Source of the DNA: Thermoanaerobaculaceae bacterium
GTDB lineage: Bacteria > Acidobacteriota > Thermoanaerobaculia > Multivoradales > UBA5704
DNA length: 64,000 nucleotides
Direction: 5' to 3'
Assembly: GCA_963778565.1 (NCBI GenBank)
Contig: CAVZUZ010000012.1
Span: 432,578 to 496,577 of the forward strand
The notes beneath the pieces are model-generated. The model had not been told where the DNA came from, made no database searches, and saw only the letters and a list, made by a program, of their open reading frames with translations. The position numbers were made by a program, and so were the translations under genes. The number at the start of each line of letters is the position of its first letter. Within the stretch, counting starts at the first letter, position 1. Positions 3,914 to 56,450 of this stretch are shown piece after piece.

Positions 3914-4189
3914 CTAAGGGTTAATCCGTGTGATGTCGGTGATATGAGGATCGCCATCGAATGGTGCATAGACGTAGATCAGTGCCGCGAGCTCAGGTTG
4001 CCCAGGATAAACAACTTTCCCTTCGCAGAGGAAGCAGTAGTTTAGCCCGGCGACGACCTGAGTGGCAAAGGCCAGTGGGGTGTACTGTACCCCCTCCAAA
4101 CCCTTCAATGCCCGATCGAATACGTTTTTCGCTTCGGGAGTGATGGTGAAGCTGAAACTACCCCATGCGCCAAGAAGAGTGCGTGACAT
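3914..4189 (-). CDS. Small (91 aa) cystatin-like protein with a QVVAG motif
   Basis: A strong SD (AAAGGAGACATT) precedes the ATG at 4189. ATQVVAGLNYCF carries the cystatin QxVxG signature. The ORF-track start at 4321 has no SD. Confidence 0.7.
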   Translation of the reverse strand: MSRTLLGAWGSFSFTITPEAKNVFDRALKGLEGVQYTPLAFATQVVAGLNYCFLCEGKVVYPGQPELAALIYVYAPFDGDPHITDITRINP

Positions 4190-23727: not shown

Positions 23728-26069
23728 GTGAAGCCGCGCTACGAAAGCACCCGCCTCCTTGCCGCCCTGATCCTTGGAGCCCTGGTGTTCGCGGCCGGCA
23801 TTGCGCTGGCGCGGGCCTGGCTGCCCGAGTGGCAGGCCGGCGAGCTGCCGAGCCGGCAGGCTTTCGTCGACCGCTACCGCGAGCTGGCCCGGCGGGCGGG
23901 GGTCCGGCTGCCTGCGACCGAGCCGCGGGTCACCTTCGGCGGACGAGACGACGACTTGAAGCTCGACGACGACGTCATAGACCGGCTGGGCCCCAGCCGC
24001 GCCGCCGCCGTGGGGGCCGGAGTGCTGGTCGAGGTGAAGCAGGAAGGAGCACCGCCCGCCACAGGGGCTAAACCGCGGGAGCTTCTCATTCGCTTTCTGC
24101 CCTCTGGAGACCCCCTCTTCATTCGCTGGGCCCATCAAGCGGAGATCTTGAAGGGCGCTCTGGAGAAGGAACCTGCACCCTCGGCCGCCGTACAGGCTCG
24201 TTTTTCGCGGCTGCTGCTCCGGCCCGGCGAACGCTTCGGTTCGGCCAGCCACGGCGGTGCCGGCGGGCCGGGCACCAAGGTGACCGTCAACGGCGAGCCC
24301 AAAGCCGAAGATTTCATGGGAACCACCTATCCCGTGCTCGGCAGCGACCCTCCCCAGTACGTCTTCGTAATCGGGGCGCCGGGCGGTGCCTTGCGGTTGG
24401 CGCGCAAGCCCACCGAGTCCAAAGGTGACGATGACGAAGGGGAGCTTCTGAGGTCGCCGAGTTCTTTCTCCTGGTCTTGCCGATGATCGTCGGAGTCCTG
24501 GCCGTGCTCGTGCTCTTTTTCGTGTTGCTGGGGAGACGCCAGATCGACTTCGTGAACGGAGGCCTGCTGGCGGGCGTCGTTCTGGTGACGGCGGCAGTCG
24601 CTTGCCTGGCCGGCGACTGGAGCTGGCTGGGAGCCTTACAGGTGGTCGGCGCCGCGTTTCTTGCTTTGTGGGTCTTCCTCGTATGGTCTACCGGTGAGTC
24701 GTTCCTGCGCTCCGTGCAAACGGGCCTCACCCTGGGCCTGGATACTCTCCGCACCGGCCGGCTCGGACCGCGCGGCGGCCAGGCTCTGCTCCATGGTGTC
24801 GCGACGGGAGCGTTCCTGGCCGGCCTGCGTCTCGCAGTGCTGGCGCTGGCCTCGCATCTTCCCCGAGCCTGGCCGGAAGGGAACAGCGTCCGGCTTCCCC
24901 CTTTCGGCGCTCAGACCCCGTTCAACAGCGGCGTCCTCATGGCCGGTGGAGTCGCCCTGGCGATGGGGATCGCCTACCGCTTGCTGCCGGCGCGCTGGGC
25001 ACCCTGGGCAGCGGCACTCGGCGTCGGGCTCGCCTTTCCTTTCGCTGCCAGCGAGCCGCCCTGGCTTCACGCCGTCGCGGGCGTAATCGCCTGCGGCACC
25101 CTCGTCTTCCTATGCCGCCAGGCCGGCTTGGCCGCCAGCCTCGCCGCGGCGCTCTCGGCGTTCCTGCTGCAGGCGGCGGCCTTCTCGGCGATGCACCTCA
25201 CCTGGCTCCCCTTCACCTTCACCGCCGCGGCGGGGATTCCTGCCCTCTTTCTGGCGCTGGGATTCGTGGGCCTGCGCCGGCCGCCTCAGGCGGAGCTGGA
25301 ACGGATCAAGCCGCCGGCGTTCATGAAGCGCCTCGAAGGCGAACGGCGGCTGAAGTACGAGATGGACCTCCTCTCCCGCATGCAGCTCGGCCTGCTGCCC
25401 GCGAAGCTGCCCGAGATCGCGGGATGGGAGATCGCCGCCCGCTCGCTCCTCGCCACGGAGGCCGGCGGCGATCTCTATGATTTTCTGCGGGATGACGAGG
25501 AACGCCTCTGGATCGCCGCCGGCGACGTGGCCGGCCACGGCTACTCTTGCTCCATCGCCCACGCGATGACCTCCGCGGCCCTGGCCAGCCTGATCGGCGC
25601 CGAGAAGACTCCGGCCGAAGTACTGGCAGGGGTGGACCGGGTCATCCGGCGGGCCTCGCAACGGAACTTCACTTCGCTGGCGCTGGTCCGTCTCGACCCC
25701 CGCACCGGCGAGGCGCTGATGAGCAACGCCGGCCACCCCTTTCCCCTGCTGCTGCTGGGGGCCGCCGGCGTCGAAGAGATCGATCTGCCCGGCCTGCCGC
25801 TGGGACAAGGCCCGCCCCGCACGTACGCCGACTTGCGCTTCGAGATTCCGCCGGGAAGCAGCCTCATCATCTGCTCGGACGGACTCTTCGAGGCCGCGGA
25901 CGCGAGAGAGAACCTCTACGGCTATGAACATCCGCGAGAGTTCCTCGGCTCCCTGGGCGACCGGTCCGCCGCCGAGATCCTGGAGCGGCTGTTCGCGGAC
26001 TGGCGCCGCCACCTGGGTGCGGAGGAGCACCAGGACGATACGACGGTGGTGGTGGTGAAGCGGATCTAA
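23728..26069 (+). CDS. Polytopic membrane SpoIIE/PP2C-family phosphatase. The frame is broken near 24455 (ORFs 23728..24486 and 24477..26069).
   Basis: PP2C/SpoIIE motifs are GGDLYDF, AAGDVAGHGYS, SNAGHPFPLL, ICSDGLFEA and QDDTTVVVVK. At least 8 TM segments lie upstream. The N-terminal 250-aa ORF runs into ..EVAEFFLLVLPMIVGVLAVL after a 1-nt shift. Confidence 0.8.
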
Positions 26070-26073
26070 GCCG

Positions 26074-26340
26074 TCAGGAATGCGTCTCGGCCAGCTTCTC
26101 GCGTAGGAGGTCGTTGACGAGAGACTCCGAAGAAACATGCCGAGAGCGTGCGATCTTCGAAATCTCCCCTGCGAGGTCCTCATCGAGACTAACCAGATGC
26201 TTACGCCGGCGTATGTCGATGTCGAAGTCCGCTTCCGGCATCTGATCCCAATACTCTCCCATATCGTGCGTATCGAAAAACTCCACGAGCTCGGCGAGCG
26301 AGTCCGTCCGCGGTAAGGCGTTCTTCTTATTTGCGGCCAT
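26074..26340 (-). CDS. brnA: BrnA-type (CopG-like) antitoxin
   Basis: ..LVEFFDTHDMGEYWDQMPEADFDID..KHLVSLDEDLAGEISKIARSRHVSSESLVNDLLREKL has the BrnA layout. It overlaps the upstream toxin gene by 14 nt. Confidence 0.75.
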   Translation of the reverse strand: MAANKKNALPRTDSLAELVEFFDTHDMGEYWDQMPEADFDIDIRRRKHLVSLDEDLAGEISKIARSRHVSSESLVNDLLREKLAETHS

Positions 26341-26611
26341 AACTCCTCCGCTCCTTGTCGGCCATGTCTCGAGCGCTCAGAGGGATCACTTCTCCGTTTC
26401 CTTTGTCGATGAACAGGATGGCGAGGTACCGTCCGGCATCAGTCCGACCCAGTGCCATGTAAACGTCCTCCCCCTCGCGCCTTCCCTTCTCGATGCGTCG
26501 TATCTTGGGCTTGTTGCTGAGTGCCTCCTCGACCTCGAACGTCTCAACGCCATGTTTGCTGGCTATCTTGTCAACGAACGCTCTGAGCCAGATGACCTCG
26601 TCAATTTTCAT
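26327..26611 (-). CDS. brnT: BrnT-family (DUF497) toxin, 94 aa
   Basis: MKIDEVIWLRAFVDKIASKHGVETFEVEEAL...GEDVYMALGRTDAGRYLAILFIDKGNGEVIPLSARDMADKERRSY. The ATG is at 26611. The ORF-track entry 26327..27739 is an artefactual extension through the antisense of the AAA+ gene. Confidence 0.75.
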   Translation of the reverse strand: MKIDEVIWLRAFVDKIASKHGVETFEVEEALSNKPKIRRIEKGRREGEDVYMALGRTDAGRYLAILFIDKGNGEVIPLSARDMADKERRSYGRK

Positions 26612-26664: not shown

Positions 26665-28428
26665 CTACATCAGCCGCAGCTCGCGCTTGATCTCGTTGAT
26701 CCGCGCCTGGACCGCCCCGCGGTCCAGGGTACGGAAGCGCTCGGGGAGCAGCTCGCGGCTGGTGGATTCGAGGATGGCGCAGAGGATCTGCATCTCGCGC
26801 TCGCGGGTGTTCGCCGGCGGGATGAAGTCCGTGAACGCCTTCTGCAGGTGCTCCGGCTTCACCTCGGAGGACTCCGCGGCCTCGGCCTCCAGGACGGCGC
26901 GCACCAGCACGGCCTCCAGGTCCGAGCCCGACAGCCCGAGGTATTGGTCCTCGCTGGCGACCTCGGAGATGGAGGACACCGGGGTCTTCAGACCCAGCTT
27001 CTTCAGCATCACGCGGTAGATCTCGTCGTACTCGGCCGCCGTCTCCGGATAGAACAGCGGGATGTGCTCCTCGGCCCGCCCCTGGCGCTTGAGGTCGATA
27101 GGCAGCAGGTCCGGCCGGGCGGTGATGAGGAACCAGAGGATCTTGCCGCGATTGCGGGTATCGCCCATGAAAGCGGCGATCTGGGCGAAGACGCGATTCT
27201 GGGTGCCCGAGTCTCCCTGCTGTTCGCGGTTGCCGAGCGCGGCGTCGGCCTCGTCCACCATCACTCCGACGGGGGTGAGCGAGGCGAGGATCTTCAGGAT
27301 CCGCTCCAGGTTGGCCTCGGTGGCGCCCACCCACATGGAGCGGAAATTCTTGAGCTTGACGCAGGGGAAGCCGATCTCCTTGGCGAAGCATTCGACGAGA
27401 AAGGTCTTGGCGCTCCCCACCGGGCCGCAGATCAGATAGCCCATAGGAACGGCGGCCGGATTGCCCCGGGCGATGGCGCGGGCGGCGCGGCGCAGGCGGT
27501 CCTTGACGGCCGGCATACCGGCCACCATCGAGAGGTCGAACTTGGGCTCGACGTACTCCAGCAACCCCAGGCCCTCGGTCTCGATGACCTCCTTCTTGAC
27601 CCGCCGCACCCGCTCGCGGGTGAGGTGATCGCCGTCGGCGTCCGCGCCGTCCAGAAGCTGACCGATCTGCACCCGGGTCATGCCGGCCGTCAGCTCGGCG
27701 AGGCGGGCCGGCGGCAGGTCCGACTTGGCGGCATACCATTCAGGGGAGCGTACCGCCTCCAGGTAGGTCGCGCGCTCGGCCGGGTCGGGGCGCAAGATCT
27801 CGATCTCCCGCGTGCCATGGGAGCGCACGAGCTTCGGGTCCAGCTCCGCCAGGCCCTCGGTCACCAGAACGATGACGATGTTCTTGGCCAGCAGCACCGG
27901 ATCCTGCGACCACTTGCGGAGGTAGACCAGGACGGCGCGGTCCTCGGGCGTGCGGTAGGCGACCTCGGCCGCGGGAACGATGGTCTCGGCGAAGGGGAGC
28001 AGCAGCGCCACCGGCCGGGCGGGCTGGAGCGAGGCGCAGTGACGGAAATACGAGTCGAGCAGGGCGAAACAGTTGCCCGCGTCGCGCGGCAGGCCGTCCG
28101 CCCAGGTCGTGCCGTGGACGGCGTCGTAACCCCGCAGCTTCTCCTGGAAGTGGCTGCGCGCCGCCGGGTTGGCGAAGCCCAACCCCTCGGCGCGGTTGTA
28201 GGTGACGATCGACGGCCAGCCGGCAAAGAGCTGCTGCACCAGGAAGTCGTCGAGCGACAGGAAGCGCAGGCCGGCGGAGCTGCGGACGGGCACCAGGTCC
28301 GCCGGCACTCCGTGCAGGACGAAGGTGTTCGACTGCTTGGCGCTGACGGCGCGGACCAGATCCGAAGCCCACGGCGGGAGCGATTCGAGAAACACGGCCG
28401 GTGAAGGCGTAACGGCGGCTTCGGGCAT
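26665..28428 (-). CDS. Tandem-AAA+ ATPase of the classic clade (Cdc48/Vps4-like), with a degenerate N-terminal AAA module and an active C-terminal module
   Basis: D2 has Walker A GYLICGPVGSAKT (GPxGxAKT variant), Walker B VGVMVDEADAA and a second region of homology ITARPDLLPIDLKRQGRAEEHIPL. D1 is P-loop-less (TFVLHGVPADL, ALLLPFAE, IVLVTEG). Confidence 0.85.
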   Translation of the reverse strand: MPEAAVTPSPAVFLESLPPWASDLVRAVSAKQSNTFVLHGVPADLVPVRSSAGLRFLSLDDFLVQQLFAGWPSIVTYNRAEGLGFANPAARSHFQEKLRGYDAVHGTTWADGLPRDAGNCFALLDSYFRHCASLQPARPVALLLPFAETIVPAAEVAYRTPEDRAVLVYLRKWSQDPVLLAKNIVIVLVTEGLAELDPKLVRSHGTREIEILRPDPAERATYLEAVRSPEWYAAKSDLPPARLAELTAGMTRVQIGQLLDGADADGDHLTRERVRRVKKEVIETEGLGLLEYVEPKFDLSMVAGMPAVKDRLRRAARAIARGNPAAVPMGYLICGPVGSAKTFLVECFAKEIGFPCVKLKNFRSMWVGATEANLERILKILASLTPVGVMVDEADAALGNREQQGDSGTQNRVFAQIAAFMGDTRNRGKILWFLITARPDLLPIDLKRQGRAEEHIPLFYPETAAEYDEIYRVMLKKLGLKTPVSSISEVASEDQYLGLSGSDLEAVLVRAVLEAEAAESSEVKPEHLQKAFTDFIPPANTREREMQILCAILESTSRELLPERFRTLDRGAVQARINEIKRELRLM

Positions 28429-28467
28429 GGTGGAGCCTATTATCCTCTACTTTGTCAGCCCTCCGCC

Positions 28468-28584
28468 GGCCGCCCGGGGCTCCCGCCCTGGGCTATCGAG
28501 ACGTCGCCCGGAGGGCGAGGGGTCGGAGCCTCGCTTCGGAGAAGCGACGTTTCGGTAGCCCGCGGCGGGAGCCTCGGGCGGGGA
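28468..28584. repeat. Type C palindromic repeat (arms CGCCCGG.GCT.CCGC.CTGGGCTATCGAGACGTCGC / inverse), copy 1
   Basis: It is an inverted repeat between the pspA stop and the AAA+ start. Related copies lie at 50879..50976 and 56355..56450. Confidence 0.8.
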
Positions 28585-28600
28585 TGGCGCGGACCGGCGT

Positions 28601-29359
28601 TTACCCCGCTTCCGGCAGCTTCTGCGGCGTGGCCGCGGCGGTGGACTGGGTGGGGAACGGCGCGGCTTCCTTGACGGCGTCCGGCTTCTTCAGCCCCATC
28701 TCCACTTCGAACTCGGAGAGCACGCTCTGCGCCTGGAGCTGGCGGGCTTTGCGCTCGGTCTTGATGCGCTCGACGTCGAGCCCGCCGGTCGCCACCTCGA
28801 CCGCGGCCTTGGCCTCGGCGGAGCGCTGCTTGATCTCCTCCAGGTACTTGTCGTTCGTCGCGCCGACGCCGTAGGTGTCGAGCTCGGCCAGGGCCGAGGC
28901 GGCCTGCTTCATGACCACGGCCTTCTTCGATTCCTGGATGGCCTTGCGGCTCTGGTCGATCTTCATCCGCAGCTTCTGCTTGAGATCCTCGACCGTGATC
29001 TGGGCGTTCTGGAAGGCGTTCGAGGCCGCCGTGAGCTGCTCGTTGGTGGCCGCCAGGTCCTGGCGCACCTGCTGCAAGGTGGCGGCGTCGTCCTCGGCGA
29101 TGCGGCGCGCCTCGGGGCTCCCCTCGGTCAGAGCGGCCTTGATCGAGGAGGTGAGCTGACGCTCCTTGCGCTCCAGCTCCTCCTTCTCCTGCTCCAGCCG
29201 GATGACCGTGGCGCGGGTGGTGACGAGGATCTGGTTGAGCTTGGGCAGCGTGTTGCGCATCTCCTCGATGGACTCCTGGAGCATCACCTCCGGATCCTCC
29301 GCGAAGGAGATGAAGTAGCCGATCCACGACTTGATGAGACGGGCGAGGCGCTGGAACAT
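28601..29359 (-). CDS. pspA: PspA/IM30 (Vipp1) family protein
   Basis: MFQRLARLIKSWIGYFISFAEDPEVMLQESIEEMRNTLPKLNQ.. followed by long coiled-coil heptads is the canonical PspA/IM30 N-terminus. GGAGAGGAG SD is present. Confidence 0.9.
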   Translation of the reverse strand: MFQRLARLIKSWIGYFISFAEDPEVMLQESIEEMRNTLPKLNQILVTTRATVIRLEQEKEELERKERQLTSSIKAALTEGSPEARRIAEDDAATLQQVRQDLAATNEQLTAASNAFQNAQITVEDLKQKLRMKIDQSRKAIQESKKAVVMKQAASALAELDTYGVGATNDKYLEEIKQRSAEAKAAVEVATGGLDVERIKTERKARQLQAQSVLSEFEVEMGLKKPDAVKEAAPFPTQSTAAATPQKLPEAG

Positions 29360-29404
29360 AGTGGTCTCCTCTCCGAACGATCCGCGCTCGGGGCGGTCGA
29401 TCGG

Positions 29405-30143
29405 TTATCTCTCGGGCTCCTCCGGCGGCGCCGCGGCAGGCGCAGGCGGGCGGGACGCTTCCGCGGTCGAGATGGGGTTCTCCTCGACGAACGGGTTGAC
29501 GGCATCGAACAGCTTGCGCTCCTCGGCACGCTTGAGCACCAGCCAGCGCGAGAGCCGCGCCTGCTCCGTCTCCGCGGCGATGCGGTTGGCCTCCATCTTC
29601 TCGCGGTTGCGGCGGATGACGTCGTCGATCTCCGCTTGGAGCTGGGCGTTTTCCTTGTCGATGTGGTCGGAGCGCTCCGCCAGCTTCTTGCGCAGGAATT
29701 CCTCGAACCGGTCGAGCGCCTGGTCGCGGCGGACGGCGTCCTGGACGATGTCGGTGATCGGCACCGGCCCCGTGGGATTCATGTTCAGGAACCCGGTAAG
29801 GGCCGCCGCCTTGGCGCGGGAGTCCAGGGCGGCGAACCCCGGAGACGAGAAGATCTCCAGCACCTTGTAGGCGCTGTAGCCATGCGCCGGATTGGCGACT
29901 CCGGCGGCCCGGAAAACTGCCGGGAAGTCCGGGATCTCGTCGCTCTCGCCGCCTCCTGTTTCGGCAGCGAGCTTCCTCTCGTCGATCGCCGGCGTCTCGG
30001 GCATCGTCCCAAGCAGCTCGCGGATGTCGGTCGGCGATCCCGAGAGAGGCGGCTTGCCGGCATCGGAGGCTCGAGATGGTAGGCATCTCCTCGGGCGTCA
30101 GCTCCACGATCTTCATCTTACTGAGGACTTCCTTGAGACCCAT
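29405..30143 (-). CDS. Hypothetical coiled-coil protein, first gene of the pspA/AAA+ operon. The frame is broken near 30070.
   Basis: AGGAAAGG SD precedes the ATG at 30143 (MGLKEVLSKMKIVELTPEEMPTI..). It continues in ORF 29405..30004 (..DIRELLGTMPETPAIDERKL...coiled coil...). No family was recognised. Confidence 0.6.
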
Positions 30144-30183
30144 GGCCTTTCCTCGCCGTGTTGCGCAGTAAGTGACCGGCCGA

Positions 30184-30212
30184 AGCGTATGGCCGGGGCA
30201 CAGGGGTGTCAA
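30184..30212 (-). promoter_or_regulatory. Candidate sigma-70 promoter for the hypothetical-pspA-AAA+ operon
   Basis: The minus strand reads TTGACA (30212..30207), 17 nt, then TACGCT (30189..30184), about 40 nt upstream of the ATG at 30143. Confidence 0.4.
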
Positions 30213-30260: not shown

Positions 30261-30482
30261 CTAAACCTCGTAGACCGGCCGGCGGACGGGCCGCGGCAGA
30301 GGCAGGAGATTCGACACGGCCACCAGCGATTCGGCCAGGGGATTGAGCTCCGCCATCTCGCGCGGCGTGAGCGGCCGGATGCTCAGGATACGGCGAGGCA
30401 GGCGCGCCGTCGTGGGATCGCACCCGCGCTCGAGGAACGCTGCGAGGAGCCAGCGGCCGAGGGTCCGGCGGGCCGTGTTCAC
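30261..30482 (-). CDS. Possible small protein (73 aa) translationally coupled to the glycosyltransferase gene
   Basis: The GTG start overlaps the upstream stop (GTGA at 30479..30482). No motif was seen. It could be a chance ORF in GC-rich DNA. Confidence 0.3.
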   Translation of the reverse strand: MNTARRTLGRWLLAAFLERGCDPTTARLPRRILSIRPLTPREMAELNPLAESLVAVSNLLPLPRPVRRPVYEV

Positions 30483-31930
30483 GGCGGGTATTCTACCCTG
30501 ACGTAGACCACCGTCGGCTCCCGGGGCCGCAGCAGGAACTCCCGCCGCTGATAACGCTGACGCAGTAGGGGCCGCAGACGGTCCTCCAACCTACGCTCAA
30601 CGATCAGCACATCGCCGTCCGGATGGGGCGGAATCTCAGAGAGATATTCCATTCCGGGAAAATCGCGGAAATACCAGGGGAGCGGCCAAGCGTGCCGGCC
30701 GAGGATCCGGATGGAAGGCGCTTCGTTCCCAGGCGTTCGCATCGCCGCCTCCCGCACGCACGCAACCAGGGCGTCCACGTCCCGATGTGTGGGCACGTAG
30801 ACCAGGGCCAGGCGGTCGTCGTCGAAGCGCCGGAAGGAGACCTCGGCGGCGCGCCAGGCGGTCCAGGCGAGCCCCAAGGCGAAGGCGCCGGCCAGGGCCG
30901 TGCGCAGAGCCCGCGAGCCCGTGCGGCTGAAGGCCTCCCGGAACAGCACACCGCCCGCGAGCGCGGCGGGCAGGAGAAAGTTGAGCGCCAGCCAGGGAGT
31001 CTTGTAACGAAGGAGGGAGTACGCGAGCAGCTCGCCGGCGGCCCAGAGCGCGCAGAAGGTGCCGAAAGCTTCCCGCCGCCGCACGGCGAGCCATCCGCCC
31101 GCGACGGCACAGACCAGGGTCAGGGGCTCGAAGGAGAACAGGAGCCGCGGAAAGTAGTCCCACGGCTTGCCGTGTCCTGCGCCTTCCAGCCCCTTGCCGG
31201 CCCAGACGAAAAACGTCCGAAAAGAATCGGGCAGCCCCTGGGGGTTGGTGAAGAAAGAGGTGTAGAGGAGGACATAGGGGATCGCGAACGCGGCGAAGAC
31301 ACGAAGGGTCGCCGCCTGCCGCAGGTCCCTCCACAGCTCTCCGAGACGAGGGAGCCCTCGGATCCGGAGCAGCGTCAGGAAACCCGCCATTCCCAGAATG
31401 GCCAGGGTCAGCGCGTACGTCTCCTTCACCGTGGCCAGCAGTCCCAAGCAGAAGGCTGCGAGGACCAGGCTCCCCTGCCGGCGGGTCTCGAGCCAGACCG
31501 AGACCGCCGCCACCAGCGCCAGCGTGAGGAGGGCGAGGAAGGTCTCGGGGATGAGATCCCGGCCGTAAGCAACGAAGGAAGGGGAAAGCGCCAGCAGCCA
31601 GGCGGCGGCGGTGATCCCCGCCATTCCCAGCCGGCGCCGCAGCGGCAGCAGCGCCGGGATCATCAGGGCGGAGGCCAGGGCCACCGGCAGCCGCAGGATG
31701 AAAACGCTCTCCCCCAGCAGCCCTACGAACGGCGCCGTCAGGAAGATCGGGAAAGGACCGTGAAAGCGCGCGGGGTCGTAGGCGAACCGGTACCCCGCGA
31801 GCAGTCTGGAGAGAGTCCAGGCGGCCACTCCCTCGTCGTGGTGGAGCGGCCTGACGTCGAGAAACGCCAGCCGGAGCCCCAGGGCGGCGGCGAAGGCCGC
31901 CCAGAACGGCAGCCAGCGAAAAGCCCTCAC
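30479..31930 (-). CDS. GT39/ArnT-like polytopic glycosyltransferase (TIGR03663-like)
   Basis: LHHDEGV near the N-terminus (a DE motif in the first loop), about 11 TM segments and a C-terminal soluble tail match the ArnT/PMT-like architecture. The GTG start lies inside a type B repeat. Confidence 0.7.
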   Translation of the reverse strand: MRAFRWLPFWAAFAAALGLRLAFLDVRPLHHDEGVAAWTLSRLLAGYRFAYDPARFHGPFPIFLTAPFVGLLGESVFILRLPVALASALMIPALLPLRRRLGMAGITAAAWLLALSPSFVAYGRDLIPETFLALLTLALVAAVSVWLETRRQGSLVLAAFCLGLLATVKETYALTLAILGMAGFLTLLRIRGLPRLGELWRDLRQAATLRVFAAFAIPYVLLYTSFFTNPQGLPDSFRTFFVWAGKGLEGAGHGKPWDYFPRLLFSFEPLTLVCAVAGGWLAVRRREAFGTFCALWAAGELLAYSLLRYKTPWLALNFLLPAALAGGVLFREAFSRTGSRALRTALAGAFALGLAWTAWRAAEVSFRRFDDDRLALVYVPTHRDVDALVACVREAAMRTPGNEAPSIRILGRHAWPLPWYFRDFPGMEYLSEIPPHPDGDVLIVERRLEDRLRPLLRQRYQRREFLLRPREPTVVYVRVEYPP

Positions 31931-50831: not shown

Positions 50832-50878
50832 GGTCCCTTATTATGAAAGAGGCGGAAGGCTGAAGGACAGCCGTCTTC

Positions 50879-50976
50879 CGCCCAGCGCTTCCGCACTGGG
50901 CTATCGAGACGTCGCCCTGAGGGCGATTGCTCCAGAGGAGCAACGTTTCGCTAGCCCGGTGCGGGAGCGCCGGGCG
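50879..50976. repeat. Type C palindromic repeat, copy 2 (a partial extra unit lies near 51047..51100)
   Basis: CGCCCAGCGCTTCCGCACTGGGCTATCGAGACGTCGCC...TAGCCCGGTGCGGGAGCGCCGGGCG, about 50 nt upstream of the TIR-STAND start. Confidence 0.8.
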
Positions 50977-56354: not shown

Positions 56355-56450
56355 GCCCGGCGCTTCCGCACCGGGCTACAGAGATGTCGCTCCTCTGGAG
56401 CGATCGCCCTTGGGGCGACGTTTCGATAGCCCGGTGCGGAAGCGCCGGGC
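56355..56450. repeat. Type C palindromic repeat, copy 3
   Basis: GCCCGGCGCTTCCGCACCGGGCTACAGAGATGTCGC...CGATAGCCCGGTGCGGAAGCGCCGGGC. It abuts the activator stop at 56452 and may act as a terminator. Confidence 0.85.

Follow-up and report, generated by a model that had tools for sequence, protein, structure and literature searches.

The question at stake in this work is how the polymers of bacterial PspA/Vipp1 proteins get disassembled and recycled. Using comparative genomics, Ravi et al. 2024 (mSystems, PMC11237479) described a PspA-associated dyad of an inactive AAA domain and an active classical AAA domain, and proposed that it carries out ATP-dependent membrane remodelling comparable to that of Snf7 and VPS4; the examples are AEY64320.1/AEY64321.1 from Clostridium, CKH37208.1, and OGG56892.1 from an operon of Handelsmanbacteria. 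Here we analyzed a locus of this kind in a stretch of 64,000 nucleotides (nt) from a Thermoanaerobaculaceae bacterium (contig CAVZUZ010000012.1, positions 432,578 to 496,577; hereafter the window means this whole stretch). Starting from a promoter-like site, the minus strand of the window carries the genes for a conserved helical protein that we call X, for PspA, for an AAA+ ATPase, and for BrnT and BrnA (Table 1). A reading made from the sequence alone (the sequence-only reading) had taken the first three as co-oriented genes of a bacterial ESCRT-III/Vps4-style module, and all three indeed lie on the minus strand.

As far as the two can be likened by description, the locus shares with the dyad of Ravi et al. 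2024 the N-terminal inactive AAA, the C-terminal active classical AAA, the PspA neighbour and the coiled-coil or alpha-helical partners. It differs in being a minimal set of three genes, without the transmembrane (TM)/'Snf7-like' gene or the transporter genes, and in having the X family as a fixed first gene, for which that report has unnamed 'X(s)'. Because the association and the Vps4-like hypothesis are already in the literature, published independently, finding them again in the window is of limited value. New are the recognition of X as a fixed partner and of a minimal architecture of three genes, an account of how far the linkage with pspA reaches and where it stops, the structural confirmation that the first AAA domain (D1) is dead, and the corrections concerning a frameshift and a repeat. 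The sequence-only reading had pointed to a comparative-genomic mention of PspA-AAA+ associations and to no functional study. The former was found in Ravi et al. 2024, and our literature search found no functional study of the PspA-AAA+ dyad. No ATPase partner is mentioned in Popp et al. 2022, and, according to a 2025 review, an ATPase like Vps4 'appears absent in bacteria'.

Several other known systems resemble the locus in part. With Vps4/CdvC it shares a classic-clade AAA+ protein with a pore loop and a double arginine finger, encoded beside a gene belonging to the ESCRT-III superfamily, and ATP-driven polymer remodelling would be expected of both; unlike them, the window ATPase has neither MIT domain nor beta-domain and contains two AAA cassettes instead of one. 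In NCBIfam, the profiles of CDC48 (71 bits, cut-off 803), FtsH (62 bits) and PAN (58 bits) all outscore that of CdvC (34.2 bits, cut-off 650), and all stay far below their cut-offs. PspA and the ATPase probably came together by independent recruitment, not through Vps4 orthology. The best sequence and structure matches are Cdc48/p97/VAT, NVL/Rix7 and Drg1/Afg2, whose D1-D2 tandem fits the model of the 587-amino-acid (aa) protein with a template-modelling (TM) score of ~0.55, although the window ATPase possesses no double-psi barrel or other substrate-recognition domain and has entirely lost the P-loop of D1. In the proteobacterial Psp system, too, an AAA+ protein is functionally coupled to PspA, since E. 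coli PspA negatively regulates PspF (PMC7619361), but PspF belongs to another AAA+ clade, that of the sigma-54 enhancer-binding proteins, and has a helix-turn-helix (HTH) domain, and its domains are not found in the window ATPase. Finally, Makarova et al. 2024 (PMC10936438) described haloarchaeal loci, named 'Halo_adaptin', in which a gene similar to pspA neighbours that of a Vps4-like ATPase whose N-domain is of the VAT type. These loci share with ours a PspA-like gene upstream of a classic-clade AAA+ protein that has no MIT domain; they differ in being archaeal, and their ATPase, which comes from another family, has only one AAA cassette and an N-domain of the double-psi barrel type.

The explanation that we consider best, and to which we give an even chance, is that X, pspA and the ATPase gene form a compact version of a conserved bacterial membrane-stress module in which the ATPase remodels or recycles PspA polymers and X is an accessory protein.

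Results

The ATPase joins a P-loop-less D1 to a motif-complete D2

The second cassette of the ATPase (D2) contains the GPVGSAKT, VDEAD, SMWVG (pore loop) and KRQGR motifs and matches PF00004 over residues 332-457 (E 1.2e-20). Among solved structures, the best sequence matches of the protein are p97, Cdc48 and VAT, via residues ~324-530. When 53 diverse family members were compared, the residues expected for catalysis were kept in nearly all of them (K341 in 52, D392 in 52, E393 in 51, R448 in 50 and R451 in 52), and so was the [W/Y]-V-G pore loop, with W or Y at position 366 in 49 members and G368 in all 53. D2 thus has the features of an active classic-clade cassette, namely the Walker A lysine, the Walker B Asp-Glu pair, an aromatic pore loop 1 and two arginine fingers. 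The acidobacterial clade deviates from the family at two places, reading GPVGSAKT where the family has GPVGTGKT (G340A) and having alanine at the sensor-1 position.

At the place of Walker A, D1 reads FVLHGVPADLV (family consensus LHGNVxDLV) and contains no Lys-Thr/Ser; without a P-loop, it is impossible for D1 to bind a nucleotide in the usual way. The D1 rings of Pex1/Pex6 are comparably degenerate. The family alignment shows W20, D44, G82, P152 and P214 to be invariant in D1. Taken by themselves, the first 320 residues mark out a separate family, with 956 representatives of 50%-identity clusters at a threshold of E ≤ 1e-3 and 373 when E ≤ 1e-10 is required; the members are mostly 550-610 aa long. 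A search of a 5.8-billion-protein database with the D1 alignment returned nearly only the same acidobacterial clade, and the diversity described here was taken from the representative search and from the locus scans given below. The AlphaFold2 (AF2) model of the ATPase, built with the 53 family members, has a mean predicted local distance difference test score (pLDDT) of 93.5 and a predicted TM score (pTM) of 0.88. In Foldseek, this model aligned from end to end with NVL, Rix7, Cdc48, p97 and Drg1 (~580-610 columns, E ~1e-20, TM score 0.54-0.57), and this match with tandem classic-clade unfoldases indicates that D1 has the AAA fold. The motifs and the modelled tandem fold therefore bear out the sequence-only reading as far as it described a 587-aa ATPase with a P-loop-less D1 and a classic-clade D2.

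Its further description of the protein as Vps4/Cdc48-like does not hold in the sense of family membership. Besides the low CdvC and CDC48 scores and the absence of an MIT domain, the lid region (residues 464-586) is all-helical in the AF2 model and contains no beta-domain, and only ~30 residues precede D1, among which Pfam finds no double-psi beta-barrel. It seems that the ATPase would work as a threading motor of the Cdc48/Vps4 type while standing outside both families, as judged from its motifs and its model.

The same domain analysis bears on an explanation with the reversed, PspF-like logic, where PspA would inhibit the ATPase in unstressed cells until PspA is recruited to the damaged membrane, and the freed ATPase would serve in unrelated proteostasis. 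The precedent of E. coli PspA and PspF is the only point that speaks for this explanation in particular, while the conserved gene linkage fits it equally well. However, Pfam and NCBIfam detected no sigma-54 interaction domain (PF00158), GAFTGA loop or HTH in the ATPase, which is a classic-clade protein with threading pore loops, and regulation of the PspF type is limited to the clade of bacterial enhancer-binding proteins. We regard this explanation as improbable.

Some members of the ATPase family depart from the common architecture. P0128, P0132, P0145 and P0175 are ~820-856 aa long and have the inactive domain in duplicate (N-N-AAA), P0164 has an M41 peptidase of the FtsH type at its C-terminus, and P0223, P0245 and P0256 have intein/LAGLIDADG insertions inside the AAA cassette.

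PspA and its linkage with the ATPase gene

The product of the second gene matches PF04012 with 64.1 bits (cut-off 33.9; E 1.9e-17), its residues 2-214 covering profile positions 3-206 of 220. A profile of the operon-linked PspAs matches solved Synechocystis/Nostoc Vipp1 and PspA chains (E 3e-12 to 5e-4) in alignments that run from residue 1-3 to ~200, so that the earlier naming of this gene as PspA/IM30 was right. The protein starts with an N-terminal helix of the alpha0 type. With the proteobacterial PspA equivalog TIGR02977 it scored 21.9 bits (cut-off 242.95), and by these profile scores it belongs to the family without being orthologous to E. coli PspA. In the alignment of 118 operon-linked PspAs, an F-x-[VM]-EMG motif is conserved near the C-terminus, before a variable tail.

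We scanned close relatives with the ATPase, taking one genome per species and counting the linkage in loci with at least 5 kb of upstream sequence. The scan gave 80 loci at 74-92% identity, all from Acidobacteriota (Thermoanaerobaculia, Vicinamibacteria and Holophagales), and in 55 of the 59 countable loci pspA is found upstream of the ATPase gene and in the same orientation; the linkage across Acidobacteriota, which the sequence-only reading had named as a check, is thus found. The arrangement of the window, X-PspA-AAA, occurs in 32 close loci, and in 17 others a gene for a protein that we call TM4 (two TM helices and a coiled coil in a length of ~260-320 aa) lies between pspA and the ATPase gene. 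A distant scan, for which the consensus sequence of D1 served as a query, reached Balneolales, Rhodothermales and Terriglobia, with a same-strand pspA upstream in 55 of the 63 loci that had enough flank. A third scan detected the long operon form in Krumholzibacteriota, in Edwardsbacteria and in a divergent acidobacterial paralogue. The linkage with pspA is thus strong and extends across several phyla, but it is not universal, and the window lineage carries a reduced, three-gene form.

The module can be broken up even in the closest relatives, as seen in L001 (DASYTJ010000097.1), where the ATPase is 92% identical and genes of the obg/nadD type are found upstream in place of X and pspA. In L234, L235, L238 and L243 (Acidobacteriota/Vicinamibacteria), a divergent ATPase, ~32% identical to the query P0143, has its own PspA ... 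TM4-AAA operon, implying that some Acidobacteriota may carry two such systems.

Proposed mechanism

In the mechanism that we propose, PspA, a protein of the ESCRT-III fold, polymerizes on the cytoplasmic membrane, and the ATPase would most likely assemble as a double-ring hexamer, whose D1 ring would bind no nucleotide and act as a structural part or an adaptor. ATP would be hydrolyzed in D2, which would thread a flexible segment of PspA, plausibly the C-terminal tail, through its W-V-G pore loops, and the extraction of subunits would lead to remodelling, disassembly or recycling of the PspA polymer. Such an ATPase would be an analogue, in function, of Vps4 acting on ESCRT-III; because it has no MIT domain, its mode of recognition would be an unrelated one. 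X may serve as an adaptor or regulator. An ESCRT-III/Vps4-style mechanism is suggested here by homology and gene context: the gene identities, the conservation of the catalytic motifs, the tandem-AAA fold, the same-strand linkage across phyla and the tight gene spacing in relatives are all observed, and the formation of hexamers, the contact with PspA, the ATP-dependent disassembly, the role of X and the co-transcription of the three genes are presumed. We put at slightly below even the chance of the broader claim that bacteria own an ESCRT-III-plus-AAA+ remodelling machine, in which PspA polymers are taken apart at the expense of ATP by a type II classic-clade ATPase that has a dead D1 ring and whose recruitment was independent of Vps4, with X as a hitherto unrecognized adaptor.

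If true, ATP-driven remodelling of ESCRT-III has arisen at least two times, or is older than thought. A conserved, tightly linked and motif-complete unfoldase beside pspA is a directly testable candidate, and the three-gene form, with neither transporter nor TM4, is the simplest version for reconstitution from PspA rods, the ATPase and ATP.

TM4, pspA-free loci and the client of the ATPase

Several observations weigh against PspA remodelling as the function of the module. The gene directly upstream of the ATPase gene is that of TM4, not pspA, in Vicinamibacteria, in Terriglobia and in the distant members L163 and L082, where the TM4 homologues abutting the ATPase were recognized by hmmsearch at E 7e-44 and 5e-26, respectively. 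Eight of the 63 distant loci, Rhodothermales among them, are without pspA, and ~41 loci of Spirochaetota (within L165-L230) contain the ATPase with neither pspA nor TM4 within 7 kb. On the side of recognition, Pfam finds no MIT domain in the ATPase, whose N-terminus leads straight into D1, no MIM-like motif could be defined in the PspA tail from the alignment of the 118 operon-linked proteins, and the F-x-V-EMG motif may be simply a generic PspA C-terminus. In addition, the GSAKT form of Walker A and the sensor-1 alanine could make hydrolysis slow, and X is frameshifted in the window.

The adjacency of TM4 and the existence of pspA-free clades imply that PspA may not be the sole or primary client of the ATPase. 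In the explanation that builds on them, the real client would be another protein, ancestrally TM4, or else damaged membrane proteins, and PspA would be co-expressed as a stabilizer or recruitment platform; in the window lineage, which has no TM4, the ATPase would be a general membrane-protein extractase. Further observations fit this explanation: TM4 is also encoded within the operon of Balneolales, though at a distance of ~2.2 kb from the ATPase gene that other genes fill, the long operon forms include an OmpA-domain binding protein and an ABC transporter, and one member of the ATPase family, as described above, is fused to an M41 peptidase. On the other hand, the window clade kept the coupling of pspA and the ATPase gene after TM4 was lost, with gaps of mostly 3-30 nt among the 32 X-PspA-AAA loci, no TM4 homologue occurs anywhere in the 64-kb window, and HMMER and hhalign show no Snf7/PspA similarity in TM4. 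We judge another client to be rather unlikely, though a stronger contender than the reversed logic, and prefer the remodelling of PspA.

TM4 was labelled a divergent membrane-anchored Snf7 by Ravi et al. 2024 (PMC11237479). We considered TM4 as a divergent ESCRT-III/Snf7 protein and detected no such similarity, the hhalign probability against the PspA profile being <1%; searches of Pfam and of profiles of PDB chains with TM4 returned only coiled-coil noise. In the Terriglobia locus L161, the gene order is X, PspA, a binding protein with an OmpA domain, a permease, an ABC ATPase, TM4 and AAA, which repeats the operon of the OGG56892.1 type (PspA, PBP+OmpA, permease, ABC ATPase, TM protein, AAA-AAA). 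The window lineage has lost TM4. Neither pspA nor TM4 was found within 6-7 kb in the Rhodothermales loci L094, L124, L134, L142, L147, L151 and L154.

X is a fixed partner whose reading frame is broken in the window

The sequence-only reading had described X as a coiled-coil protein of ~245 aa encoded by one gene. The size agrees with that of the intact homologues, but the window contains no single open frame for it. The conserved N-terminus, MGLKEVLSKMKIVE, begins at 30143 and continues in frame for 25 codons up to a break near 30068, and three-frame translation places the remainder of the protein in another frame, in the open reading frame (ORF) 29405..30004, the longest one here, whose translation from an internal ATG (30004) is 199 aa long. 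An apparent 1-nt frameshift lies within 30060-30075, inside a variable Pro/Ala-rich linker, and the X family profile matches both frames. In 45 related loci, X is a single intact ORF of ~242-275 aa, and the intact homologue P0306 (247 aa) is 92% identical to the repaired X sequence. The cause of the frameshift is an error in the assembly or else a recent, possibly inactivating, mutation.

All 809 homologues of X are annotated as 'hypothetical', and Pfam finds no domain in X. Its conserved parts are the N-terminal helix MGLKEVLSKMKIVE, a short motif DIR[DE]LLG...IDE[RK]KL, a small helical region and a long helix, with the Pro-rich linker being variable. The AF2 model of P0306 shows the corresponding short N-terminal helix, a disordered Pro-rich linker, the small helical region and a helix of 93 residues. 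Most of X is thus one long helix and a small helical region, and the description as a classical coiled coil does not apply to its whole length. Foldseek found nothing at E < 1 for the X model among PDB structures. X was also considered as a divergent ESCRT-III protein, but no such similarity was detected (hhalign probability against the PspA profile <1%), and hhalign gave 9% probability for X against TM4. A role of X as adaptor or regulator is a guess.

Features of the locus and the promoter-like site

The features of the locus are collected in Table 1, together with the positions of TM4 in the loci of relatives.

Table 1. Features of the X-pspA-ATPase locus and its surroundings in the window, and positions of TM4 in relatives.
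Feature	Position	Strand	Description
X	29405..30143	-	Conserved hypothetical helical protein, frame broken here
pspA	28601..29359	-	PspA/IM30, ESCRT-III superfamily, 252 aa; PF04012
AAA+ ATPase gene	26665..28428	-	587 aa, tandem AAA
ATPase D1 (~aa 1-300)	27529..28428	-	AAA fold without Walker A, invariant N-terminal LPxW motif
ATPase D2 (~aa 301-587)	26665..27528	-	Classic-clade AAA cassette, lid, two-helix C-terminal extension; PF00004
BrnT	26327..26611	-	PF04365 (BrnT_toxin)
BrnA	26074..26340	-	PF12441 (CopG_antitoxin)
Palindromic repeat in pspA-AAA+ spacer	28470..28581		Resembles repetitive extragenic palindromic (REP) elements and miniature inverted-repeat transposable elements (MITEs)
Promoter-like site 5' of X	30184..30212	-	TTGACA 30212..30207, 17-nt spacer, TACGCT 30189..30184
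SpoIIE/PP2C-type membrane phosphatase gene	24477..26069	+	Convergent; flanks cluster
PMT_2 glycosyltransferase gene	30479..31930		Flanks cluster
TM4 in L037	5116-5997		
TM4 in L161	5015-5971		
TM4 in L097	2838-3722		
TM4 in L163	1106-1936		
TM4 in L082	682-1464		

The TTGACA-N17-TACGCT promoter noted by the sequence-only reading is present in the sequence. It was not called in a scan for the generic consensus promoter, because its -10 element agrees with TATAAT at only 3 of 6 positions. At the species level, at least 18 related loci keep the block TTGACACCCC...GGCCATA[G/C]GCTT 5' of X amid flanks that vary, which supports a real promoter at this place; it is 5' of X only that a promoter-like motif is conserved. 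We accordingly predict a promoter function for the site from its conservation, and such a conserved upstream motif would not by itself prove that X, pspA and the ATPase gene are co-transcribed. Other subclades have a different conserved block 5' of X, ending in AGAATAGGCT or TAGAAT. In L007, L010, L011, L016-L019, L025 and L026, and in L037, L041, L044, L052 and L062, the blocks GAAAGAGAATAGGCT and GAGATAGAATC, respectively, replace TTGACA...CATAGGCT. A sequence similar to those upstream blocks, GATAATAGGCT, occurs in the window 8 nt 5' of the start codon of the ATPase gene.

A young dispersed repeat separates pspA from the ATPase gene

In the window, a spacer of 172 nt separates pspA from the ATPase gene, whereas most relatives that share the three-gene layout have only 3-30 nt at this place. 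The palindromic repeat that had been noted in this spacer was found as an inverted repeat with 38-nt arms, 87% complementary to each other, and its predicted RNA fold has an energy of -101.7 kcal/mol (z = -4.8). It belongs to a repeat family of ~110 nt, of which further copies lie in the window at 50878..50976 and 56404..56450 and one lies at another position (3979-4077) in the relative L033. The 20-nt core GGGCTATCGAGACGTCGCCC occurs three times in the window against 0.05 expected, and of 185,579 species genomes in GTDB only the four Thermoanaerobaculia metagenome-assembled genomes that are closest to the window contain it in multiple copies, with 3-11 copies each. The tight gaps in relatives imply that the repeat was recently inserted into a closely packed operon, which accounts for the wide gap in the window.

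Two other identities were considered for the palindrome and rejected. As a terminator it has no T-tract and received no terminator call, so that the concern of the sequence-only reading, that the repeat might isolate the ATPase gene by terminating transcription, gives way to a young dispersed repeat. As a known RNA it found no family in Rfam, where all matches were sub-threshold noise. REP elements occur in E. coli operons, and we speculate by analogy with them that the repeat might lower the expression of the ATPase relative to that of PspA.

Genes flanking the module

As the sequence-only reading had stated, BrnT and BrnA are encoded immediately downstream of the ATPase gene, with 53 nt between the end of the ATPase gene and the start of BrnT and an overlap of 14 nt between the two genes. 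Both Pfam models match above their cut-offs (PF04365, 37.5 bits against 34.5; PF12441, 37.2 against 28). Their presence, together with the weak similarity that PADLOC/NCBIfam finds between D2 and the models for IetA/IteA and TRIP13 (E 4.5e-9 to 2e-8), would fit an anti-phage or toxin-antitoxin-associated defence island in which the link with PspA is incidental. However, these D2 matches cover the generic AAA core only, and none of the 80 related loci has BrnTA at this position; in many of them, the SpoIIE-type gene lies directly 3' of the ATPase gene. Because they are missing there, BrnT and BrnA are a lineage-specific insertion between the ATPase gene and the convergent SpoIIE/PP2C gene, outside the module. 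The chromosomal context is also stable, unlike that of defence islands, with SpoIIE-type and PMT-type neighbours recurring and 74-92% identity kept over many species. We therefore consider a defence island far less credible than any other explanation given above.

Just 5' of the promoter-like site, the minus strand contains an ORF of 73 aa (MNTARRTLGRWLLAAFLERGCDP..., 30261-30482). Its protein sequence is also conserved in L003 (3295-3516), and it may be a real small gene.

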